IMG/VR virus record: IMGVR_UViG_3300033121_001702
Origin: a virus
Direction: 5' to 3' (one strand)
Length of the DNA: 21,507 bases
Shown: positions 1,120-21,507 of the stretch, in pieces
Layout of the letters: each line of letters begins with the position of its first letter
How positions within the stretch are numbered: the stretch's first letter is position 1
Program-made: the position numbers and the translations under genes
Notes under the pieces: model-generated
The model's input: the letters and a program-made list of their open reading frames with translations, nothing else
Told to the model about the DNA's origin: nothing
Databases searched by the model: none

Positions 1120-2043
1120 TTAACTTCGTTGTTCGCTGGAAGTTGAAAAACCAACAGTACCAGATTCGGTAGCTGATTTTTTACGTGTTTCAATATTCTT
1201 TAGCTTTTCGATAGTATCTCGATAAGAAAGACCCAAACATTTTACTGCAACTACTAGTTCGGCTAAGGATGCAAAAGACAACCCTTCGCTTTCCTTAACC
1301 CACATTTCGATCTCCTGATTTGTTGAAGTGGTATTCAACTTCTTCAAAAGAAATTGTCGTCTGATTTCGGTTTTTGGCATATCAATGCGAAGAACTGTGT
1401 CAAAACGTCGTGGTCGTGCTGAAATTCGTTTATCTAACTCTTCTGGATAATTGGTGGTAGCTATGTTGATAACATGATTAATTTGTGACTCGCCGTCTAA
1501 TAATCGAAGAAAAGCACTTTCTTCGTATATTTTAACCAAATTATCTAAATCTTCGAACACACAAACAACAGGTTTTGTAGGCTCAATAAATCTAAATTTT
1601 GTAAGACCTTGTTCTAAAAATTCAGGATGTCCTGCTAAAAAACAAACTCCGCCTTGTGAGATAACGTGCAAAATAACTTGATGAACAATTGAAGTTTTAC
1701 CAGAACCCTGAGGTCCATAAAGTAAAAATCCTCGTTTGTGCACAAATTTATATGATTCAAAAGCAGTTGCGGTTGCCCAGAATTTGTTTGTTTCATTCAT
1801 TATTCGTTCGGATAAGTCATCTTTAAAAACAAACAATTCATCTGTATTTAAAGGCTGTGGAATATAAACTGGTTCACCATCATATTTGTCGATTCGATAA
1901 GAACCTGGACCTAAAGCTTTGTATGTATGCCCAACGGGTGAATAACCACCTAGCTTACTTACATATTGTGTGTAAAAATTTTTCTTAGTTGAACTTGTTG
2001 CTGCGACAGTTGGAGTAATATCAAAGGGATCAATTTGTTGCAT
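1120..2043 (-). CDS. AAA-family ATPase (classic AAA clade)
   Basis: Walker A LLYGPQGSGKTS, Walker B VVCVFEDLD, second region of homology ATTNYPEELDKRISARPRRFD (cf. ATNRPDxLDPALxRPGRFD). Confidence 0.8.
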   Translation of the reverse strand: MQQIDPFDITPTVAATSSTKKNFYTQYVSKLGGYSPVGHTYKALGPGSYRIDKYDGEPVYIPQPLNTDELFVFKDDLSERIMNETNKFWATATAFESYKFVHKRGFLLYGPQGSGKTSIVHQVILHVISQGGVCFLAGHPEFLEQGLTKFRFIEPTKPVVCVFEDLDNLVKIYEESAFLRLLDGESQINHVINIATTNYPEELDKRISARPRRFDTVLRIDMPKTEIRRQFLLKKLNTTSTNQEIEMWVKESEGLSFASLAELVVAVKCLGLSYRDTIEKLKNIETRKKSATESGTVGFSTSSEQRS

Positions 2044-2392: not shown

Positions 2393-2599
2393 TTATTCTT
2401 CTTCTAATTCCTTTAAAGCTTCATCAAGGGCTTCTTCCAACTTATCATCATAAAAATGAAACATATCTTGAGGGCCTAGTCCTTTTAGATTAGATAATAA
2501 TTGACACAATCTAATATCGTGTTGATGCATGTATAGCTTAGTTAATTTGTCTATAAGACGTTGCTTGTCTTCTTTGTTACGATAGTTTATATATTCCAT
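2393..2599 (-). CDS. hypothetical protein (68 aa), acidic C-terminus
   Basis: ORF track; overlaps the thyX-like stop by 13 nt. Confidence 0.4.
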   Translation of the reverse strand: MEYINYRNKEDKQRLIDKLTKLYMHQHDIRLCQLLSNLKGLGPQDMFHFYDDKLEEALDEALKELEEE

Positions 2600-3558
2600 T
2601 TATTTCTCTCAATCATTTTCTGTACCACTTTCGGTGCTACATTGGCATTGATAACTTCAGATAGCATTAAACGTGCAACTTCCTGTATTTCAGGTTGCGC
2701 ATCTGGCGCTAAACGCTCACGTAATATATTCTCGAACGCACGAAGATTAAGAACTAACTTCATGTGAGTAATGAACGCAGTTCCAAGTATTCCACGAATA
2801 AATTCACGGGCGCGTTTATATTCTGCTTGAGTAATACGTTTTTCTTCAACCCAAGTTTTTAGCTCAGTAAGTTTATCTTCATAAGCCTTGTATTGTGCTT
2901 CTAACATACTTGCATACCAACCTTTTGGATTAACTCTAGAGATACAGTTATTCAATGTTGGTTCGCGTCGAACATTAAGAATTTTTTCTACATCTTCTGG
3001 CATTTCCAAAAACCGATTAGGAATTGTTCTATAACGGCCAGATAATTCATTCTGTGTGATATTATCACGACCCATTGGTGCAAAATTTGCAGTAATTTCT
3101 AAGCCACCAGCGGTAAACATCGTTAAATTATCAAGCAGTCTTTCATACCCACATGCTATGTAACTCCATTCTAATTCTTGCGGAGTCATTTCAGATTGTT
3201 TTTTTCCACTCGGAACATGTTTTAACGATTCTAAGTATTTACGCTGATATTGCTTATATAAGCGATTAACGCTATCTTCATCATAAACATTTCGAATATC
3301 CTGATACTGTTGTGTCATTCGATATTTATCAAGTTGACGTTCGATATAAATCGGTATCTCAAGATAAAATTCTAACCAAGTTGATTCCAACGGTGTTCCA
3401 TGACCTTGACCAACGACTATGTTTATAACTTTATCAATCTGTTCTTCTGTCTTTGTTTCAAATTTGTCTCTATCGTATGTGCTGGTCCACGCGCTTTCAC
3501 AAACCCGTTGGTCACCAGGTCCCCAGTGAGACAATAATTTAACTTTTATTTCGCTCAT
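2587..3558 (-). CDS. thyX: flavin-dependent thymidylate synthase ThyX-like protein, divergent
   Basis: Matches ThyX in three places: N-terminus (VKLLSHWGPGDQRVCESAWTS vs V-LL-h-p--------aaR-cy), GHGTPLESTWLEFYLEIPIYIERQ vs [24 protein letters not shown], and NELSGRY plus the C-terminal LNLRAFENILRERLAPDAQPEIQEVA block. The RHR of the RHRx7S motif reads KYR, and an insertion of about 85 aa separates it from NELSGRY. Confidence 0.6.
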   Translation of the reverse strand: MSEIKVKLLSHWGPGDQRVCESAWTSTYDRDKFETKTEEQIDKVINIVVGQGHGTPLESTWLEFYLEIPIYIERQLDKYRMTQQYQDIRNVYDEDSVNRLYKQYQRKYLESLKHVPSGKKQSEMTPQELEWSYIACGYERLLDNLTMFTAGGLEITANFAPMGRDNITQNELSGRYRTIPNRFLEMPEDVEKILNVRREPTLNNCISRVNPKGWYASMLEAQYKAYEDKLTELKTWVEEKRITQAEYKRAREFIRGILGTAFITHMKLVLNLRAFENILRERLAPDAQPEIQEVARLMLSEVINANVAPKVVQKMIERNKWNI

Positions 3559-4090
3559 TTTCTTCCATATCTTTTAATATTAATTTCATTTCATACAGAG
3601 TTGCATCATTTCGCAAAGCATTTGCTCTAAATGAAATAACTCTTACATTTCCTTTGATATATCCTTCAGAATTGTTAATTCTATCTAAAGTTGGTGATGT
3701 CATAATTGGACCATTTCCATTAAGATTTCGCTCTAATTTAATTCCAAGAATAGGACAATATTCAGGAATAGTTACATCTTCAATCGTTAGATTATATTCT
3801 AATCCTTTAGTTTTTGCACGATGACGTGCTTTAACTAGTAAACCCATTTCTGGATTGTCATGCCTCCATTTAGTTGCATAAGCTTTTCGTTCTTTAAATT
3901 TACGTTGTAAATAGTCTTTACTCCAAATACGTTTCTTTTCTTTTTGTTCTGGAGTTGAACGATACTTATTATGATATTCATTCAGACAATCTTTACATTG
4001 ATTGAGATAACCATCTTTGGATGCTGTTTTCTTTGAAAAACGTTCTATTGGTTTTTCTATCTGACATTTTTTACATATTTTAGTACTCAT
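3539..4090 (-). CDS. HNH homing endonuclease (free-standing)
   Basis: N-terminal CKKCqiekpierF...CKDC zinc motif typical of phage HNH endonucleases, and C-terminal LDRINNSEGYIKGNVRVISFRAN (HNH_3-like). SD GGAAAGGAG 8 nt before the ATG at 4090; overlaps the thyX-like start by 20 nt. Confidence 0.8.
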   Translation of the reverse strand: MSTKICKKCQIEKPIERFSKKTASKDGYLNQCKDCLNEYHNKYRSTPEQKEKKRIWSKDYLQRKFKERKAYATKWRHDNPEMGLLVKARHRAKTKGLEYNLTIEDVTIPEYCPILGIKLERNLNGNGPIMTSPTLDRINNSEGYIKGNVRVISFRANALRNDATLYEMKLILKDMEENERNKS

Positions 4091-7826: not shown

Positions 7827-8102
7827 TTAATCCTCAGTTACTTTTTTTAAAATAGGATAATAACCTAATTCGAGTGAATTATAATTTAAATCGGATTGAA
7901 TAATAATTGGATTTTCCATAATAAAAGTACCAATCCAATGTGCTTCATCGACTTTTAGAATCTTATAATCCGTTATTCTATTATCTTTGATATTTGTTTT
8001 CTTTTTCATTTCAGACAAAACGAATTCACATGCATTTTGAAATTTTTCAAAATAGTGAATATCAGATTTATTGTCGAAAGGCATTGTTATATAAAATTCC
8101 AT
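7827..8102 (-). CDS. hypothetical protein
   Basis: ATG at 8102 overlaps the upstream TAA by 1 nt (TAATG), suggesting translational coupling; the ORF-track start at 8111 is also possible. Confidence 0.45.
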   Translation of the reverse strand: MEFYITMPFDNKSDIHYFEKFQNACEFVLSEMKKKTNIKDNRITDYKILKVDEAHWIGTFIMENPIIIQSDLNYNSLELGYYPILKKVTED

Positions 8103-16342: not shown

Positions 16343-16377
16343 CGTACTACTATTAGATTTCCTAATCCTGTATTGAA

Positions 16378-17034
16378 CTATACAGTTGTAGTCTGGACTA
16401 TTTCTTCACCTTGAATATTCTTATTTTTAGGTGTTCCGTGCATAGTCTCTGAAGCTTCCTCTTTATTAAGAGGCTCGCCTGCTGGTTGTACAATATCACT
16501 TATTTTTATAACATTCGCACTCGTTGTTGCCAACCATGCTGTAGTTAAGTGATCTCTAAGTGTTTTCCAGCAATTCTCGGAAATACTACTGTTCTTTTTC
16601 AAGTACAGCGACCTGTGATGTTGTAAATAGCGATGTAAAGAATTATGAGCACTAGTTGCTAAAATCCATAAATTCTCAGATTGGTTGTTTTGTGGATTTT
16701 CATCTACATGGTGCACAACATGATATTTTGGAATAGCAATTCCCAGTGACTTAACATAAGAGCGACCTACGGTCATCCCAGTTTTATCTCTGGGAACTTT
16801 ATTATAATCTTCAACAACTTTATATCGACACCCAATGTGTGCAACTTGATTTTTTCTCCAAGCTTTCATTGGTTGTTTACATACCGCACACTCACTCAGA
16901 CAATAGTGGTTGCCATATTTTTTAGTCCGTTGACGATTATATTCTTTTGCACACTCTTTGCATCTTTTTCGTTCTACAACACCTACTTTTCCACAATCAA
17001 TACATTTCTTTTCGGATAAAGGTATTTTTGACAT
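16378..17034 (-). CDS. HNH endonuclease (free-standing, or encoded in an intron-like insertion)
   Basis: CIDCGKVG...CKEC zinc motif and HNH motif HHVDENPQNNQSENLWILATSAHNSLH; start at ATG 17034 with SD GGAG (the ORF-track start at 17100 lies upstream of the promoter -10 box). Confidence 0.75.
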   Translation of the reverse strand: MSKIPLSEKKCIDCGKVGVVERKRCKECAKEYNRQRTKKYGNHYCLSECAVCKQPMKAWRKNQVAHIGCRYKVVEDYNKVPRDKTGMTVGRSYVKSLGIAIPKYHVVHHVDENPQNNQSENLWILATSAHNSLHRYLQHHRSLYLKKNSSISENCWKTLRDHLTTAWLATTSANVIKISDIVQPAGEPLNKEEASETMHGTPKNKNIQGEEIVQTTTV

Positions 17035-17065
17035 TTTAGCTCCAATCTTGTTTTCGTATACATAC

Positions 17066-17094
17066 AATATACAAAATTGGAAGGTACTTGTCAA
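17066..17094 (-). promoter_or_regulatory. sigma70-type promoter P4 driving the second HNH gene
   Basis: Minus-strand read TTGACAagtaccttccaattttgTATATTgtatg; -35 at 17089-17094, -10 at 17066-17071, spacer 17. Confidence 0.6.
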
Positions 17095-17114
17095 GTTCAT
17101 TTGTGGAAATGTTT

Positions 17115-17216: not shown

Positions 17217-17615
17217 TTAATCAGAAAAAGGTATATGTTTGGTTTGTTGCTGTAATTCTTCGGAACGCGTTACCGAAACAATTGCAGCGTCTTGTATGTG
17301 AAACCATTGAGTCAAACCCTCCATGGCTATAGTTAAATTAAACTCTTTACAAGAATAAAGATCACATGAAAAATAACACAGCTCTGGCCACGTATGAATA
17401 GTCATATGACTTTCGGCCCAGATCGCAGTGCCTGTAACTCCCGATTGTTGGTCACCCACGCTCGGAAATCCGTATATTATCGGATTTTGCATTAACGTCA
17501 TTCCCAGTTGAGACGTTATTGTGCGCATCACATTGTCTATATAATTTGTATTGACAAGTAAGTGTACAAAGGCTGGGTCAACCTTACAGTCAAGAATTAA
17601 GTGCATGCCGTGCAA
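17217..17615 (-). CDS. speH: S-adenosylmethionine decarboxylase proenzyme, pyruvoyl-dependent (SpeH/class 1 AdoMetDC-like)
   Basis: HLILDCKVD...GFPSVGDQQSGVTGTAIWAESHMTIHTWPELCYFSCDLYSC aligns with Bacillus/archaeal SpeH ([31 protein letters not shown]), including the ES|H serine that is processed to pyruvoyl. Confidence 0.8.
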   Translation of the reverse strand: MHGMHLILDCKVDPAFVHLLVNTNYIDNVMRTITSQLGMTLMQNPIIYGFPSVGDQQSGVTGTAIWAESHMTIHTWPELCYFSCDLYSCKEFNLTIAMEGLTQWFHIQDAAIVSVTRSEELQQQTKHIPFSD

Positions 17616-18450: not shown

Positions 18451-18635
18451 TTGAAAAATCCTGTAATAACAGGCCAAATATGTGAACGCCAATACCAACC
18501 AATAGCCATTGCACCAGGTATCATTATTAGTAGATTGACCATTAATGGCAACGAGAACAAGGTTGTAAGGTAGCCCCATGAATAGCTTGTAGCTAACATC
18601 ACGAGAGTTGAGATTATTTCATTCAATATCTTCAT
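18447..18635 (-). CDS. small membrane protein (62 aa, two TM helices)
   Basis: Hydrophobic sequence ISTLVMLATSYSWGYLTTLFSLPLMVNLLIMIPGAMAIGWYW. Confidence 0.4.
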   Translation of the reverse strand: MKILNEIISTLVMLATSYSWGYLTTLFSLPLMVNLLIMIPGAMAIGWYWRSHIWPVITGFFK

Positions 18636-18787
18636 TTGTTAATTTGTCCAATAGTTTATAAAACCATTTTTTGAATTGTTTACGTTCGGATTTATTTAGA
18701 TGTCGATCTTTTTTAAAGCACCCATCACCATTAAAATCCCAACGCATTCCTTTTGGTCTTCGTTTTGTTGATTTTTTCATATTGTTG

Positions 18788-18862
18788 TACCCCAAGAGGG
18801 ATTCGAACCCCCGACCTGCGGTTTAGAAAACCGATGCTCTAATTCCGCTGAGCTACTGGGGC
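18788..18862 (-). tRNA. tRNA-Arg (anticodon UCU)
   Basis: Minus-strand read GCCCCAG-TA-GCTC-AGCGGAATTA-GAGC-A-TCGGT-TTTCTAA-ACCGC-AGGTC-GGGGG-TTCGAAT-CCCTC-TTGGGGT-A; only a 27:43 mismatch; T4-like phages commonly carry tRNA-Arg(UCU). Confidence 0.8.
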
Positions 18863-19154
18863 AGTTGGTTATTTAATACGATAAAATTATTTCTTTTTTA
18901 TGCCCACATTTGTGACACATATGTTCTTCAATAATTTTACTTTTTATAGCTTTTACATTGATTGCAATAAAGCTATGTTTTTGACATTTTTGTTCTTTAA
19001 GGTACTGCTCTAAACTCTTGTACAAATCCGAAAATCTAGGCATTTTTATTTAATCCTCATCCAAATTTCCAAGTAATAAGCAAACACATCCGAATAAGAA
19101 ATGTCCGCTTAAAAAACACAGTATGGCTACAATATACCAAAGATTCATATTTTT

Positions 19155-19580
19155 TTACCACAAAAATCTAACGTTTGTATAAACGCTTAGAATGGGTTTG
19201 ATTGTTGGTTCTATTATTTGCTCAAATATGCCATAATCATTGGCCAGCCCCGCACCAACTTTACTTATCAAGTAAATTTTATCAGGGTTGGATTCGATTT
19301 CTTGAATAAGTTTATCTAATTCAACTTTAAATAACCACGCGTATTCCCATGGTTCATAACATGCGTCTTCATTATGTTTTGGTGTGCGTTTAGTGATAAA
19401 CCCATATGTATTTGGTAAATGTCGAAGTTTTGCCGCTCCACCGGTACCTTTATGCCACGTATTATCACCAAAAACAAAAATTTCGTTTGGATGTTCTAAA
19501 AGATATTCTTCAGTTATCTCGTTTTGTACTTCTAATTTATCTTTGAGTACAAGAATTTTATCAATATTTTCTGGATTCAT
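19155..19580 (-). CDS. conserved hypothetical protein (IFVFGDNtwhkGTGGAAKL motif)
   Basis: Gly-rich motif after a hydrophobic beta-strand suggests a Rossmann-like nucleotide or ligand-binding fold; family not confidently recognised; 4-nt overlap with the PTH2 gene. Confidence 0.45.
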   Translation of the reverse strand: MNPENIDKILVLKDKLEVQNEITEEYLLEHPNEIFVFGDNTWHKGTGGAAKLRHLPNTYGFITKRTPKHNEDACYEPWEYAWLFKVELDKLIQEIESNPDKIYLISKVGAGLANDYGIFEQIIEPTIKPILSVYTNVRFLW

Positions 19581-19957
19581 AATAATTTTAACTCTCCAGT
19601 TATTTCATCTATTACTTCGGACCAATCTGGTCCCAGTGCCATACATGTAATTGTTGGTACACCGTTAAATTCAGTATCCCCTGAATCTGTAATAATCTTG
19701 CAGGGTACGTGTGAAGCATAAGCTTCATGTGCAAGTGCTAAAAGTTCGCCTTCAGAATCTACTGAAACACAAACTTTTTTAAAACTGTAACCAGATTCCG
19801 GATCCATCCATAATCGCATGGGTTCCGAAATCTGATTGCGTCTTTGAGCATCTAAAATTAAACCAAGACATGCGTGTGCTCCTTGTGCCACCATTTTACC
19901 TTTGCGCATATTTAGATCTTTGCGCATTACGATGACTTGTTTTATATCTCTTTTCAT
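19577..19957 (-). CDS. pth2: peptidyl-tRNA hydrolase, PTH2 family
   Basis: KQVIVMRKDLNMRKGKMVAQGAHACLGL matches PTH2 [26 protein letters not shown]; the C-terminal GVPTITCMALGPDWSEVIDEITGELKLL matches [26 protein letters not shown]. Confidence 0.8.
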   Translation of the reverse strand: MKRDIKQVIVMRKDLNMRKGKMVAQGAHACLGLILDAQRRNQISEPMRLWMDPESGYSFKKVCVSVDSEGELLALAHEAYASHVPCKIITDSGDTEFNGVPTITCMALGPDWSEVIDEITGELKLL

Positions 19958-21168
19958 GTTCGTAAATGTGGAAACAAAATAACTTCTTTAATGCTATCAA
20001 TATCGAACATTGTCATAAATAATCTATCAATACCGATACCCATGCCACCGGCTGGAGGCATACCGTATTTTAAAGCTTGTAAGAAATCTTCGTCTAACGG
20101 ATAATCGGTATTAACTTGATTCATAAACATTCGACGTTGTTCTTCGTAGTCATTTTGTTCTGAATATATATTTGCTAATTCAACACCTTTCCAGTAAAAT
20201 TGTGCTTTTTCTGCTAATCCTTTAACTCCATGTTCTTTTGCTAAAGGAACTAATTCTCGTGGATAATTTACCACACTACATAAATCTTGTAATGTGGATT
20301 GAACGTGTTGTTTAAAATAATCATCTTTTTCAGCTAATGGAATTTCTTTAGGTACTAAGTTATTATATTGATGAATTTTGTGCATCATAACAGCTTTACC
20401 TAAAAATTTCTTTGAAAGATGTGAAATTAATTCTTGAAACAAAACACTCATTGTACAATAATCAGCATATGCTTGATAAATTTCAATCATTGTAAATTCA
20501 GGATTGTGTGTTTTGTCCATACCTTCGTTGCGGAAATTTTTACCAATTTCAAATATTTTTTCAAACCCGCCTACTAAGAGACGCTTTAAATACAACTCTG
20601 GAGCAATACGTAAATACATATCTTGATTAAGTGAGTTATATTTCGTAATAAATGGTTTAGCAGTTGCTCCGCCATATACTGGTTGTAAAATTGGTGTTTC
20701 AACTTCCGTAAAATAATGTGTTTCGGTCAAATATTTACGAATTTCGTAAATAAAATCACTACGCAATCTAAAGATTTTATAGACTTCTGGATTAATTTGA
20801 AGATCTATATATCTTTGACGATATCGAGTTTCTTTGTCTGTAATTTGAAAATATTCCGCATCTTCAGTAGATTTCGGAAAAGGCATTGAAATTACTGGAA
20901 CATGTTGAATTTTAAATTTCAATACACGTAGAGATGGTTCCCCTGTCTTTGTTACAAACTCTTCGGCTTCATGAACGGAAATCAAATCTCCAACTTTCAA
21001 ATTAAGAAACTCATCAAAATTTTCGGTAACATCTTTCTTTGCATAAAGCTGAATAGCTTCTCCGTATGACATGATATGCACAAAAGATGATTTTCCCATT
21101 ACACGGACTGATTTTACACGTCCGTTATAATTGTATACTTTAGTAATTGAAGACTCGTTGGTGTCCAC
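19954..21168 (-). CDS. lysS: lysyl-tRNA synthetase, class II (LysRS), with a shortened N-terminal anticodon-binding domain
   Basis: RYRQRYIDL signature; motif 2 NFRNEGM; motif 3 GGMGIGIDRL; the core GGATAKPFITKYNSLNQDMYLRIAPELYLKRLLVGGFEKIFEIGKNFRNEGMDKTHNPEFTMIEIYQAYADY is nearly identical to E. coli LysS; 404 aa vs about 505. Confidence 0.9.
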   Translation of the reverse strand: MDTNESSITKVYNYNGRVKSVRVMGKSSFVHIMSYGEAIQLYAKKDVTENFDEFLNLKVGDLISVHEAEEFVTKTGEPSLRVLKFKIQHVPVISMPFPKSTEDAEYFQITDKETRYRQRYIDLQINPEVYKIFRLRSDFIYEIRKYLTETHYFTEVETPILQPVYGGATAKPFITKYNSLNQDMYLRIAPELYLKRLLVGGFEKIFEIGKNFRNEGMDKTHNPEFTMIEIYQAYADYCTMSVLFQELISHLSKKFLGKAVMMHKIHQYNNLVPKEIPLAEKDDYFKQHVQSTLQDLCSVVNYPRELVPLAKEHGVKGLAEKAQFYWKGVELANIYSEQNDYEEQRRMFMNQVNTDYPLDEDFLQALKYGMPPAGGMGIGIDRLFMTMFDIDSIKEVILFPHLRT

Positions 21169-21388
21169 TTTGTTCCTCCCAAGTCATAGAAAGATTATAC
21201 ACTTCTGTGACTTTTTGCATATTTTTGTAATCATACTTTTTGGCAATTTCGTGAACATTTTCTTGTTCTGAAACATATACTGGGTAATCTTCCCAAGAAA
21301 AAGTATCTGTTACTACGATCATATGGGTTGCTTTGTTATAAATTCCAGCTTCAAACCAAAGTTTCAATGTATTTGGAATCGTTGCCAT
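21140..21388 (-). CDS. hypothetical protein (82 aa)
   Basis: ORF track; overlaps the lysS start by 29 nt. Confidence 0.4.
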   Translation of the reverse strand: MATIPNTLKLWFEAGIYNKATHMIVVTDTFSWEDYPVYVSEQENVHEIAKKYDYKNMQKVTEVYNLSMTWEEQSGHQRVFNY

Positions 21389-21507
21389 TAGTATTTGTCC
21401 TGATTTGTGTAAGTGAATGGTAAAATTTCTGCATGAGGTTTAAACTGTAATACAGATTTACAGGATGGGCAAGTGTGAGTACAAAATCCTTTTTCTTTTT
21501 CTTCTTC
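21389..21507 (-). CDS. hypothetical protein, C-terminal fragment only (the gene starts beyond the window end); contains CTHTCPSC
   Basis: Open minus-strand frame from the window end down to the TAA at 21391-21389. Confidence 0.4.

Follow-up and report, generated by a model that had tools for sequence, protein, structure and literature searches.

A compact lysyl-tRNA synthetase (LysRS) of 404 amino acids is encoded on the minus strand of the IMG/VR virus record IMGVR_UViG_3300033121_001702, an entire JGI contig of 21,507 nucleotides that is referred to as the window. Judged from its sequence and its predicted fold, this protein is probably a functional, streamlined class IIb enzyme that belongs to a region of translation-support genes, accessory genes and tRNA islands in a large tRNA-rich phage, and it would be co-expressed with a tRNA-recycling hydrolase and an ADP-ribose-processing enzyme. 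The genes in question had been noticed in a preliminary description that was made from the letters of the DNA, and the LysRS gene, the gene of a PTH2-type peptidyl-tRNA hydrolase and a third open reading frame (ORF) lie where they had been placed there, as the ORF list shows. All genes of the module lie on the minus strand, and all positions are those of the window:

19954..21168, minus strand: compact class IIb LysRS, 404 amino acids (ORF list, Pfam, alignments, structural model)
19577..19957, minus strand: PTH2-type peptidyl-tRNA hydrolase, 126 amino acids (ORF list, Pfam, TIGR00283)
19155..19580, minus strand: DUF7831 protein, 141 amino acids, predicted macrodomain-like fold (ORF list, Pfam)
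21140..21388, minus strand: ORF of 82 amino acids directly upstream of the LysRS gene, overlapping its start by 29 nucleotides (ORF list)
19050..19148, minus strand: possible hydrophobic ORF of 32 amino acids (MNLWYIVAILCFLSGHFLFGCVCLLLGNLDED), read from the sequence only and below the threshold of the ORF list
18873..19043, minus strand: ORF of 56 amino acids with two Cys pairs (CxxC motifs) (ORF list)
18787..18862, minus strand: tRNA-Arg, anticodon UCU, decoding AGA and AGG, without encoded CCA (ARAGORN; Rfam RF00005, 61.3 bits)

Architecture of the synthetase

The assignment of the protein as a LysRS is supported by Pfam (tRNA-synt_2, 1e-75, residues 111-402; PF00152, 255 bits versus a cutoff of 25), by the T. 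thermophilus LysRS as the best match in the PDB (1.7e-93) and by an AlphaFold2 model (pLDDT 85.7, pTM 0.85) that contains a complete OB barrel and a class II core. The best structural match of this model is again the T. thermophilus enzyme, in this case in complex with tRNA-Lys (9slz, TM 0.86). Three parts can be distinguished: an OB fold at about residues 14-89, which the Pfam profile recognizes at residues 16-87 with a score slightly under the cutoff (24.7 versus 27), a linker with an insertion of seven amino acids at residues 97-103, and the catalytic core with motifs 1-3 at residues 111-402.

The relation to the enzymes of bacteria is more distant than had been thought: the core had been described as about 75% identical to E. 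coli LysS, but the measured identity is 39% overall and reaches 66% at best, over 91 residues. For the OB domain the value is 32%; the catalytic part reaches 55% in its N-terminal half and 36% in its C-terminal half. The window protein is 101 amino acids shorter than E. coli LysS, and the missing parts are discrete: no counterpart exists for the 56 residues that form the helices preceding the OB fold (7-62 in E. coli), for 41 residues of the insertion that separates motifs 2 and 3 (320-360), for the residues 445-451 and for some individual positions. The linker that joins the OB fold to the catalytic core has gained seven residues, which partly offset the loss. Thus, the deficit of about 100 residues that had been seen before is real, but it is not a truncation of the anticodon-binding domain, the OB fold of which is complete. 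The ORF list takes the first start after a stop, and the relatives of the protein begin at the same point; therefore, the short N-terminus is genuine as well. We also considered the possibility that the overlapping 82-amino acid ORF is a split-off N-terminus of LysRS and rejected it: this ORF found no match in family scans (Pfam, NCBIfam, PHROG), it does not resemble the N-terminal helices, and the common start of the relatives speaks against such a split.

Active-site and tRNA-contact residues

If the reduced protein had lost its catalytic residues, it would have to be regarded as a pseudo-synthetase. This is not what we found: 14 of the 15 catalytic residues checked are kept, i. e. (in the numbering of LysU) G216, E240, R262, E264, H270, N271, F274, E278, Y280, E421, N424, Y426 (F/Y426), E428 and R480. 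These positions are what we take to be the active site of LysU, and their numbering was validated, as every letter matches E. coli LysS at an offset of +1. The protein is thus no obvious pseudo-enzyme. The contacts to the tRNA can be derived from the human enzyme, in which R136, K141, F144, Q155, T191 and E195 read the anticodon, the motif-2 residues E325, G326, D328 and H331 hold C74 and C75, and the linker residues K223, E224 and R228 are located at the acceptor arm (PMC11878792). In the window protein, all six anticodon readers are kept (R22, K26, F29, Q40, T73 and E77), as are all counterparts of the CCA contacts (E215, G216, D218 and H221) and of the acceptor-arm contacts (K112, E113 and R117). 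A check of the N-terminal domain for recognition of the tRNA-Lys anticodon had been proposed in the preliminary description; at the level of the sequence, the residues that read a UUU anticodon are in place.

Selection on the gene points in the same direction. In an independent assembly (L003), the LysRS gene differs from that of the window at seven positions, all of them third codon positions and all synonymous, with no nonsynonymous difference. Since such a pattern would have a chance of about 0.25^7 under neutrality, these data indicate that the gene is under purifying selection.

Gene structure, conserved residues, predicted fold, rarity, family relations and purifying selection are shown by the data; the enzymatic activity, the tRNA substrate and the benefit for the phage are inferred, and the following mechanism is put forward. 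The OB fold would read U35 and U36 of tRNA-Lys via Arg22, Phe29, Gln40, Thr73 and Glu77, and the class II core would form the lysyl-adenylate and then transfer the lysyl group to A76. PTH2 would set free the tRNA of peptidyl-tRNA that has dropped off, adducts or derivatives of ADP-ribose would be removed or hydrolysed by the macrodomain protein, and tRNA-Arg(UCU) would supply the decoding of AGA. Together, the module would keep charged tRNA available for the AT-rich, Lys-rich phage proteome late in infection. In the window, lysine makes up 7.9% of the residues with AAA as 79% of its codons, and AGA accounts for 20-26% of the Arg codons.

A family of compact synthetases on phage-like DNA

How rare are such proteins? 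Among 5.8 billion proteins, close matches to the window LysRS form three clusters: its own, P0002 (65% identity, 404 amino acids) and P0003 (62%, 393 amino acids); the remaining matches are full-length bacterial enzymes of 460-516 amino acids with 40-44% identity. In a filter-free search of 1.84 billion representatives with a hidden Markov model, this window clade appears as one cluster at 50% identity that scores 819 bits, followed by the next match at 399 bits. The best real phage match is the LysRS of 378 amino acids of a 636-kb huge phage (LR756504.1). A search with this latter protein returned 17 clusters of 357-390 amino acids before the scores drop to ordinary bacterial enzymes, and the search of the representatives yielded a further compact protein, P0438, of 402 amino acids. 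Altogether, the compact LysRS comprise about 21 protein clusters in three subclades with common indels, and the family is so far found only on phage-like DNA. Three traits are common to all of them, i. e. to the window protein, 19 others and P0438: (i) the helices preceding the OB fold are absent, (ii) an insertion of 6-7 amino acids with a similar pattern (hydrophobic-Pro ... Asp/Glu-Asp/Glu) is present at the same place of the linker, and (iii) the insertion between motifs 2 and 3 is short, with 24-36 residues compared with at least 62 in bacterial enzymes. Each of these traits was absent from all 56 sampled bacterial LysRS. Other reduced forms of LysRS do occur, e. g. proteins of 445-475 amino acids that keep the N-terminal helices; for this reason, the compact subclades may conceivably have been reduced convergently.

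The rarity of synthetases in phages, which had been stated earlier in general terms, holds for LysRS: protein and cluster searches agree, and the only viral LysRS in BFVD is a giant-virus enzyme of 595 amino acids. Scans of IMG/VR with the three proteins of the window clade gave no relative except for one weak partial match with 31% identity, and when the DNA of the region was compared with 50,697 phage records, no near-identical sequence turned up. Published work already covers synthetases of huge phages as well as PTH2 of jumbo phages; in the literature that we searched, neither a phage LysRS nor the compact LysRS architecture is described.

Good contextual evidence that the compact family acts on tRNA-Lys comes from the other subclades: in all five loci studied (L011, L012, L014, L015 and L016), the LysRS gene is immediately preceded by two to three genes for tRNA-Lys (CUU and UUU), and L011 carries a fourth tRNA-Lys gene downstream of it. 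In these subclades, LysRS would form a cassette with the phage's own tRNA-Lys genes.

Two further features of the sister-clade loci were observed. First, tRNAs of 89-90 nucleotides with Lys anticodons (UUU or CUU), a stem-loop variable arm and a class-II-like body adjoin the compact LysRS genes, beside ordinary tRNA-Lys of 72-76 nucleotides:

L011:5809-5897: long-variable-arm tRNA-Lys
L012:6799-6888: long-variable-arm tRNA-Lys
L014:7817-7906: long-variable-arm tRNA-Lys
L015:7610-7699: long-variable-arm tRNA-Lys
L015:7890-7979: long-variable-arm tRNA-Lys

Second, more synthetase genes are found nearby, coding for short HisRS-like proteins of 196-210 amino acids and for a class I synthetase of 735 amino acids; accordingly, other phage synthetases may be reduced as well:

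L012:9639-10229: further synthetase gene of a sister-clade contig
L015:12898-13530: further synthetase gene of a sister-clade contig
L014:9381-11588: further synthetase gene of a sister-clade contig

Genes coupled to the synthetase gene

The LysRS gene starts with a GTG codon at position 21168, six nucleotides behind a GGAGG Shine-Dalgarno sequence. At the LysRS/PTH2 and the PTH2/DUF7831 junctions, stop and start codons overlap by four nucleotides (ATGA in both cases), as had been noted before; since both junctions are of this type, we conclude that the three genes are translationally coupled. The tRNA-Arg gene, which had been placed directly behind the third gene, was verified by ARAGORN and Rfam, but the possible 32-amino acid ORF and the 56-amino acid ORF lie in between; the latter had a faint PHROG as its sole match (E 0.006). 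A scan of positions 18500-21507 for promoters and terminators gave counts not above those of shuffled sequence and, therefore, does not define a transcription unit.

The second gene of the group encodes a hydrolase of the archaeal/eukaryotic type, in agreement with the preliminary description. It matches PF01981 with 1.7e-31 (109.3 bits versus a cutoff of 23) and TIGR00283 with 98.7 bits versus a cutoff of 82; for PRK04322, the score of 108.9 is below the cutoff of 126. The protein aligns end to end with the structures of archaeal Pth2 enzymes, and its residues Lys21, Asp91 and Thr95 correspond to K18, D86 and T90 of the S. solfataricus protein, which we take to be the catalytic ones. The ortholog in L002 is 77% identical. 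PTH2 proteins of phages are not new: they have been described in a survey of jumbo phages, with a proposed role in ribosome rescue (PMC7824862).

For the third gene, the earlier reading was an unknown Gly-motif protein of a translation module. The ORF is there, but a role in translation finds no support, as the protein models as a macrodomain. Pfam assigns it to DUF7831 (3.8e-15), in structure it most closely matches the antitoxin macrodomains DarG and DarTG as well as TARG1, and no macro family of Pfam was matched at E <= 0.01. Based on the model, the protein is likely macrodomain-like and would bind or hydrolyse ADP-ribose. At least 191 homologs of DUF7831 were found, on phage-like contigs of up to 288 kb, and in two other phages the gene lies one gene past DUF4326; a review links DUF4326 to ADP-ribose processing and reports a macro domain in 56% of the jumbo phages. 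Because of these links to ADP-ribose processing, the DUF7831 protein is not a translation factor in the narrow sense.

Some regularities in the surroundings of DUF7831 were noted besides. In other large phage contigs, the gene either stands one gene past DUF4326 or has a gene for a pyruvoyl arginine decarboxylase within a few kb (L008/L009:5270-6378; L006:1915-6372), and it recurs near genes of polyamine enzymes, with speD in the window, L001, L002 and L018. In L001, speD directly precedes and overlaps DUF7831.

The tRNA-Arg gene is located 0.3-1.6 kb downstream of the LysRS gene in all three relatives, and orthologs are present in L001 and L002. Most simply, this position reflects shared ancestry in a tRNA-rich region. 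The tRNA has a cloverleaf structure with the anticodon UCU, and A20 and C35, the identity elements of tRNA-Arg, were read from its sequence. The idea that LysRS mischarges this neighbour was rejected, since LysRS keeps its readers of U35 and both Arg elements are present in the tRNA.

The window as phage DNA

The window is one entire contig, one strand of which is densely packed with about 30 ORFs; the majority of these have no family match. Its phage-type genes are ThyX-like, endonuclease VII/HNH, a DenV-like pyrimidine-dimer glycosylase, an HNH endonuclease by a group I intron, and speD; TerC, a von Willebrand factor A (vWA) protein and an AAA ATPase are encoded as well. Five scattered tRNAs were found by ARAGORN and confirmed by Rfam (five of five): those for Tyr, Glu, Phe and Arg, as listed in the preliminary description, and an additional tRNA, Met(CAT), that had escaped it. 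Shine-Dalgarno-like motifs precede 12 of the 30 starts, compared with a background of 9.6%, and the best matches of the AAA ATPase and of PTH2 are in "uncultured phage" genomes of 460-600 kb (LR756500, LR756508 and LR756511). No virion structural gene is present in the window, so that its phage origin stays an inference, and a strong one. The gene content, the tRNAs, the dense packing on one strand and the relatives in huge phages all support the earlier view that these are genes of a phage rather than of its host.

A number of observations concern the remainder of the window. The AAA ATPase (307 amino acids, 1120-2043, minus strand) shares 31-33% identity with proteins of three huge-phage genomes and matches the PADLOC models for IetA and TRIP13. 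At 2587-4090 (minus strand), a ThyX-like ORF of 323 amino acids has two separate Pfam matches, the stronger of which (residues 169-303) spans positions 82-186 of the 191 positions of the profile; it is overlapped by an endonuclease VII/HNH-like ORF of 183 amino acids, and the ThyX-like gene may have been disrupted by this putative mobile endonuclease. The DenV-like pyrimidine-dimer glycosylase and the S-adenosylmethionine decarboxylase SpeD are encoded at 8102-8623 and 17217-17615 (both minus strand), and the latter is about 30-35% identical to cyanophage SpeD. Just downstream of speD, a group I intron (16373-16638, minus strand; Rfam 51.1 bits versus a gathering score of 50) overlaps the 3' end of an HNH endonuclease ORF of 240 amino acids (16378-17100, minus strand). 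The order speD and then HNH is also found in L002, and L001 has no HNH gene. The fifth tRNA (9711-9782, minus strand, anticodon CAT) adjoins tRNA-Glu and is a tRNA-Met or possibly a lysidine-modified tRNA-Ile2. Finally, the segment 10732-14910 (minus strand) has a GC content of 0.40-0.45 as compared to about 0.33 elsewhere; it encodes the vWA protein, the TerC membrane protein and an ORF of 879 amino acids with the shoulder and repeat domains of the major vault protein (PF11978, 2.8e-19). Since the listed start of this ORF overlaps tRNA-Phe, the true start is probably located further downstream.

Discussion

Our analysis favours a functional, streamlined LysRS in the translation-support region of a large phage, and several findings weigh against this conclusion. 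First, the one catalytic position that is changed is a Mg2+ ligand: Glu414, the counterpart of human E487, is replaced by Gln323, and this holds for all three members of the window clade. Since the literature searched offered nothing useful on Glu414 of LysU itself, its role is taken from the human enzyme, in which E487 and E494 coordinate two Mg2+ ions that are required for adenylate formation (PMC11878792); of the corresponding pair in E. coli (E414/E421), the first is thus Gln in the window clade and the second is kept. Because of the Gln at a Mg2+-ligand site, the activity of the enzyme could be reduced or altered. Second, the cutoffs of the curated NCBIfam models for LysRS are not reached (TIGR00499, 380.2 versus 427.6; PRK00484, 412.6 versus 468), a shortfall that results from the missing segments. 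Third, the grouping of the window clade with the LR756504 clade in a neighbour-joining tree is weak, with a bootstrap value of 63% compared with 100% for each clade alone. Fourth, no tRNA-Lys gene was found in the window, and the same is true for L002, for the 1 kb by which L003 extends beyond the window and for the 18.4 kb of L017 that were seen. Finally, LysRS, PTH2 and DUF7831 do not form a fixed module, since each relative has a gene order of its own and these 18.4 kb of L017 contain no PTH2 gene: in L002, the order is PTH2, an ORF of 84 amino acids, LysRS, an ORF of 86 amino acids and tRNA-Arg, and in L001 and L017 it is tRNA-Asp, LysRS, an ORF of 70 amino acids and tRNA-Ile, followed by tRNA-Arg, speD and DUF7831. 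In other phages, DUF7831 stands amid unrelated accessory genes. The 84-amino acid ORF of L002 was considered as the counterpart of the 82-amino acid ORF of the window, but the two are unrelated.

It is possible, although we consider it rather unlikely, that the three coupled genes form a counter-defence operon. In this scenario, PTH2 would deacylate tRNAs that have been blocked by toxins, e. g. the N-acetyl-aminoacyl-tRNA produced by GNAT toxins, the macrodomain protein would strip from RNA or DNA the ADP-ribose added by ADP-ribosyltransferases of the host, and the divergent phage LysRS would replace a host LysRS that is shut off or targeted, e. g. by kinase toxins that act on LysRS. The tight coupling of the three genes and the antitoxin macrodomains DarG/DarTG and TARG1 as structural matches of the DUF7831 protein would fit such a function. 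Moreover, in two of three lineages the distance between PTH2 and LysRS has remained at about 300 bp or less despite rearrangement, the survey of jumbo phages reads PTH2 as a means of ribosome rescue after attack on tRNA (PMC7824862), and phages are known to carry orphan DarG-like or NADAR antitoxin mimics. On the other hand, PTH2 is not near LysRS in L017 and DUF7831 is located elsewhere in most phages, none of the three proteins has a match in PADLOC, and no genes of RNA repair (Pnk, Rnl, KptA, 2H) are among the window ORFs that were scanned. In addition, no target defence system is known for the host of the phage. The specific suggestion of the preliminary description, a defence against tRNA-Lys nucleases of the PrrC/RloC type, finds no support. 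A synthetase cannot repair a cleaved tRNA, and neither RNA-repair genes (in about 25 window ORFs scanned) nor a tRNA-Lys gene accompany it in the window; the answer to PrrC as known from T4, i. e. Pnk plus RNA ligase, has no counterpart among the domains found by Pfam and PHROGs in these ORFs.

It is tempting to speculate that compact LysRS genes in general mark a phage-owned decoding of lysine that is insulated from the host. In most lineages, the enzyme would travel with tRNA-Lys genes of the phage, the long-variable-arm species among them; in the lineage of the window, with its Gln at a Mg2+ site and its coupling to PTH2 and a macrodomain, it would have become part of an operon by which usable tRNA is restored after a host attack on tRNA or on the translation machinery. 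We hold this to be unlikely as it stands.

Quite unlikely, in our view, is that the LysRS of the window clade has left canonical tRNA charging. It could then be a synthase of dinucleotide polyphosphates (Ap4A-type), attach lysine to a different acceptor, bind tRNA as a regulator, or supply Lys-tRNA to a reaction outside the ribosome. This idea derives from the Glu-to-Gln exchange at the Mg2+ site together with the missing insertion. The exchange is fixed in the clade, and the position is Glu in the 17 proteins of the LR756504 clade and in 55 of the 56 sampled bacterial enzymes; the clade has also lost the adjacency to tRNA-Lys genes that is seen in the other compact subclades. There are precedents: the LysRS paralogs EpmA/PoxA and LysX have other functions, and the phage enzyme Mom modifies DNA using Gly-tRNA (PMC13219725). 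However, the residues for anticodon reading and CCA-end binding are kept without exception, which would be unexpected if tRNA were no longer the substrate, and the same is true for all lysine- and ATP-binding residues apart from Glu414. Gln itself occurs at this site in one of 117 bacterial LysRS, a protein of ordinary length, and its carbonyl oxygen can still coordinate Mg2+ according to general chemistry. Moreover, the scans of the window ORFs revealed no partner enzyme nearby that would use aminoacyl-tRNA.

That the genes are cellular, i. e. host DNA or a mis-binned bacterial contig, is highly improbable: the lack of a virion structural gene in the window, the IMG/VR scans without a relative, and LysRS, TerC and vWA as typically cellular families would be in line with it, but there is no close cellular homolog among the 5.8 billion proteins (the best bacterial LysRS shares 44% identity and is 80-100 amino acids longer), the AAA ATPase, PTH2 and LysRS have their nearest relatives in huge-phage genomes, and homing endonucleases, a group I intron, endonuclease VII, the DenV-like enzyme, ThyX, speD, five tRNAs and some 30 short ORFs on one strand are features typical of phages.

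A functional compact LysRS in a large phage would be of interest in several respects. So far, phage synthetases have mainly been counts in surveys of huge phages; here, a LysRS appears with a phage-specific reduced architecture and common indels. As a natural minimal LysRS of about 360-400 amino acids, it may help to understand the contributions of the N-terminal helices and of the insertion that lies between motifs 2 and 3, and a compact pair of synthetase and tRNA may serve engineering. The linkage of LysRS and tRNA-Lys genes in the sister clades makes a host-independent decoding of lysine directly testable. The window clade, in which a Mg2+ ligand is altered, no tRNA-Lys gene adjoins and LysRS is coupled to PTH2 and a macrodomain, provides the contrasting case. 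Taken singly, the PTH2, tRNA and macrodomain genes are each ordinary for large phages; the operon with the compact LysRS extends the sets of translation genes known from very large phages.

Comparison with known systems

The closest architectural parallels are the LysRS of the huge phage LR756504.1, which stems from the data set of Al-Shayeb et al. (2020), its 16 metagenomic relatives and P0438, which share the same three reductions and insertions with the window protein, have 357-402 amino acids and are encoded on phage-like contigs rich in tRNA genes. The proteins of the LR756504.1 type are about 39% identical to the window LysRS and differ from it in that they keep the Mg2+-binding Glu and have no adjacent PTH2; in the loci examined, their genes lie directly downstream of two to three phage tRNA-Lys genes and some of them near other synthetase genes.

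Bacterial class IIb LysRS such as LysS and LysU of E. coli and the enzyme of T. thermophilus share the OB fold, the class II core with motifs 1-3, and the lysine, anticodon and CCA contacts with the window protein; the ATP-binding set is also common to them except for the exchange of Glu414 by Gln323. The window protein differs from them by an identity of 39-44%, a length reduced by 80-100 amino acids, seven extra residues in the linker and the Gln at the position of the Mg2+-binding Glu. EpmA (PoxA, GenX), which lysylates EF-P, has a related class IIb core but lacks the OB anticodon-binding domain. The window LysRS scores 177 bits against the cutoff of 286.9 for this family, and it is not an EpmA, since it has the OB domain with every anticodon-reading residue. 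The LysRS of Yasminevirus, a giant eukaryotic virus, is likewise encoded by a virus; it has 595 amino acids and is 31% identical to the window protein, and in contrast to the setting in a giant virus, the window has ribosome-binding sites of the bacterial type and phage genes.

The neighbours of the synthetase gene have relatives in other phages, too. PTH2 proteins with full-length identities of 37-54% are encoded by large, tRNA-rich phages, namely the Mycobacterium phage Myrna (gp36), the phiM12 group of Sinorhizobium, RsoM2USA of Ralstonia, XacN1 of Xanthomonas and Atu_ph07 of Agrobacterium, as well as by several huge phages. Translational coupling of PTH2 with a synthetase gene is seen in the window and in none of the other loci examined. 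With the known macrodomains, i. e. the DarG antitoxin, viral macro domains, Poa1p and TARG1, the DUF7831 protein shares a sequence identity of just 11-15%.

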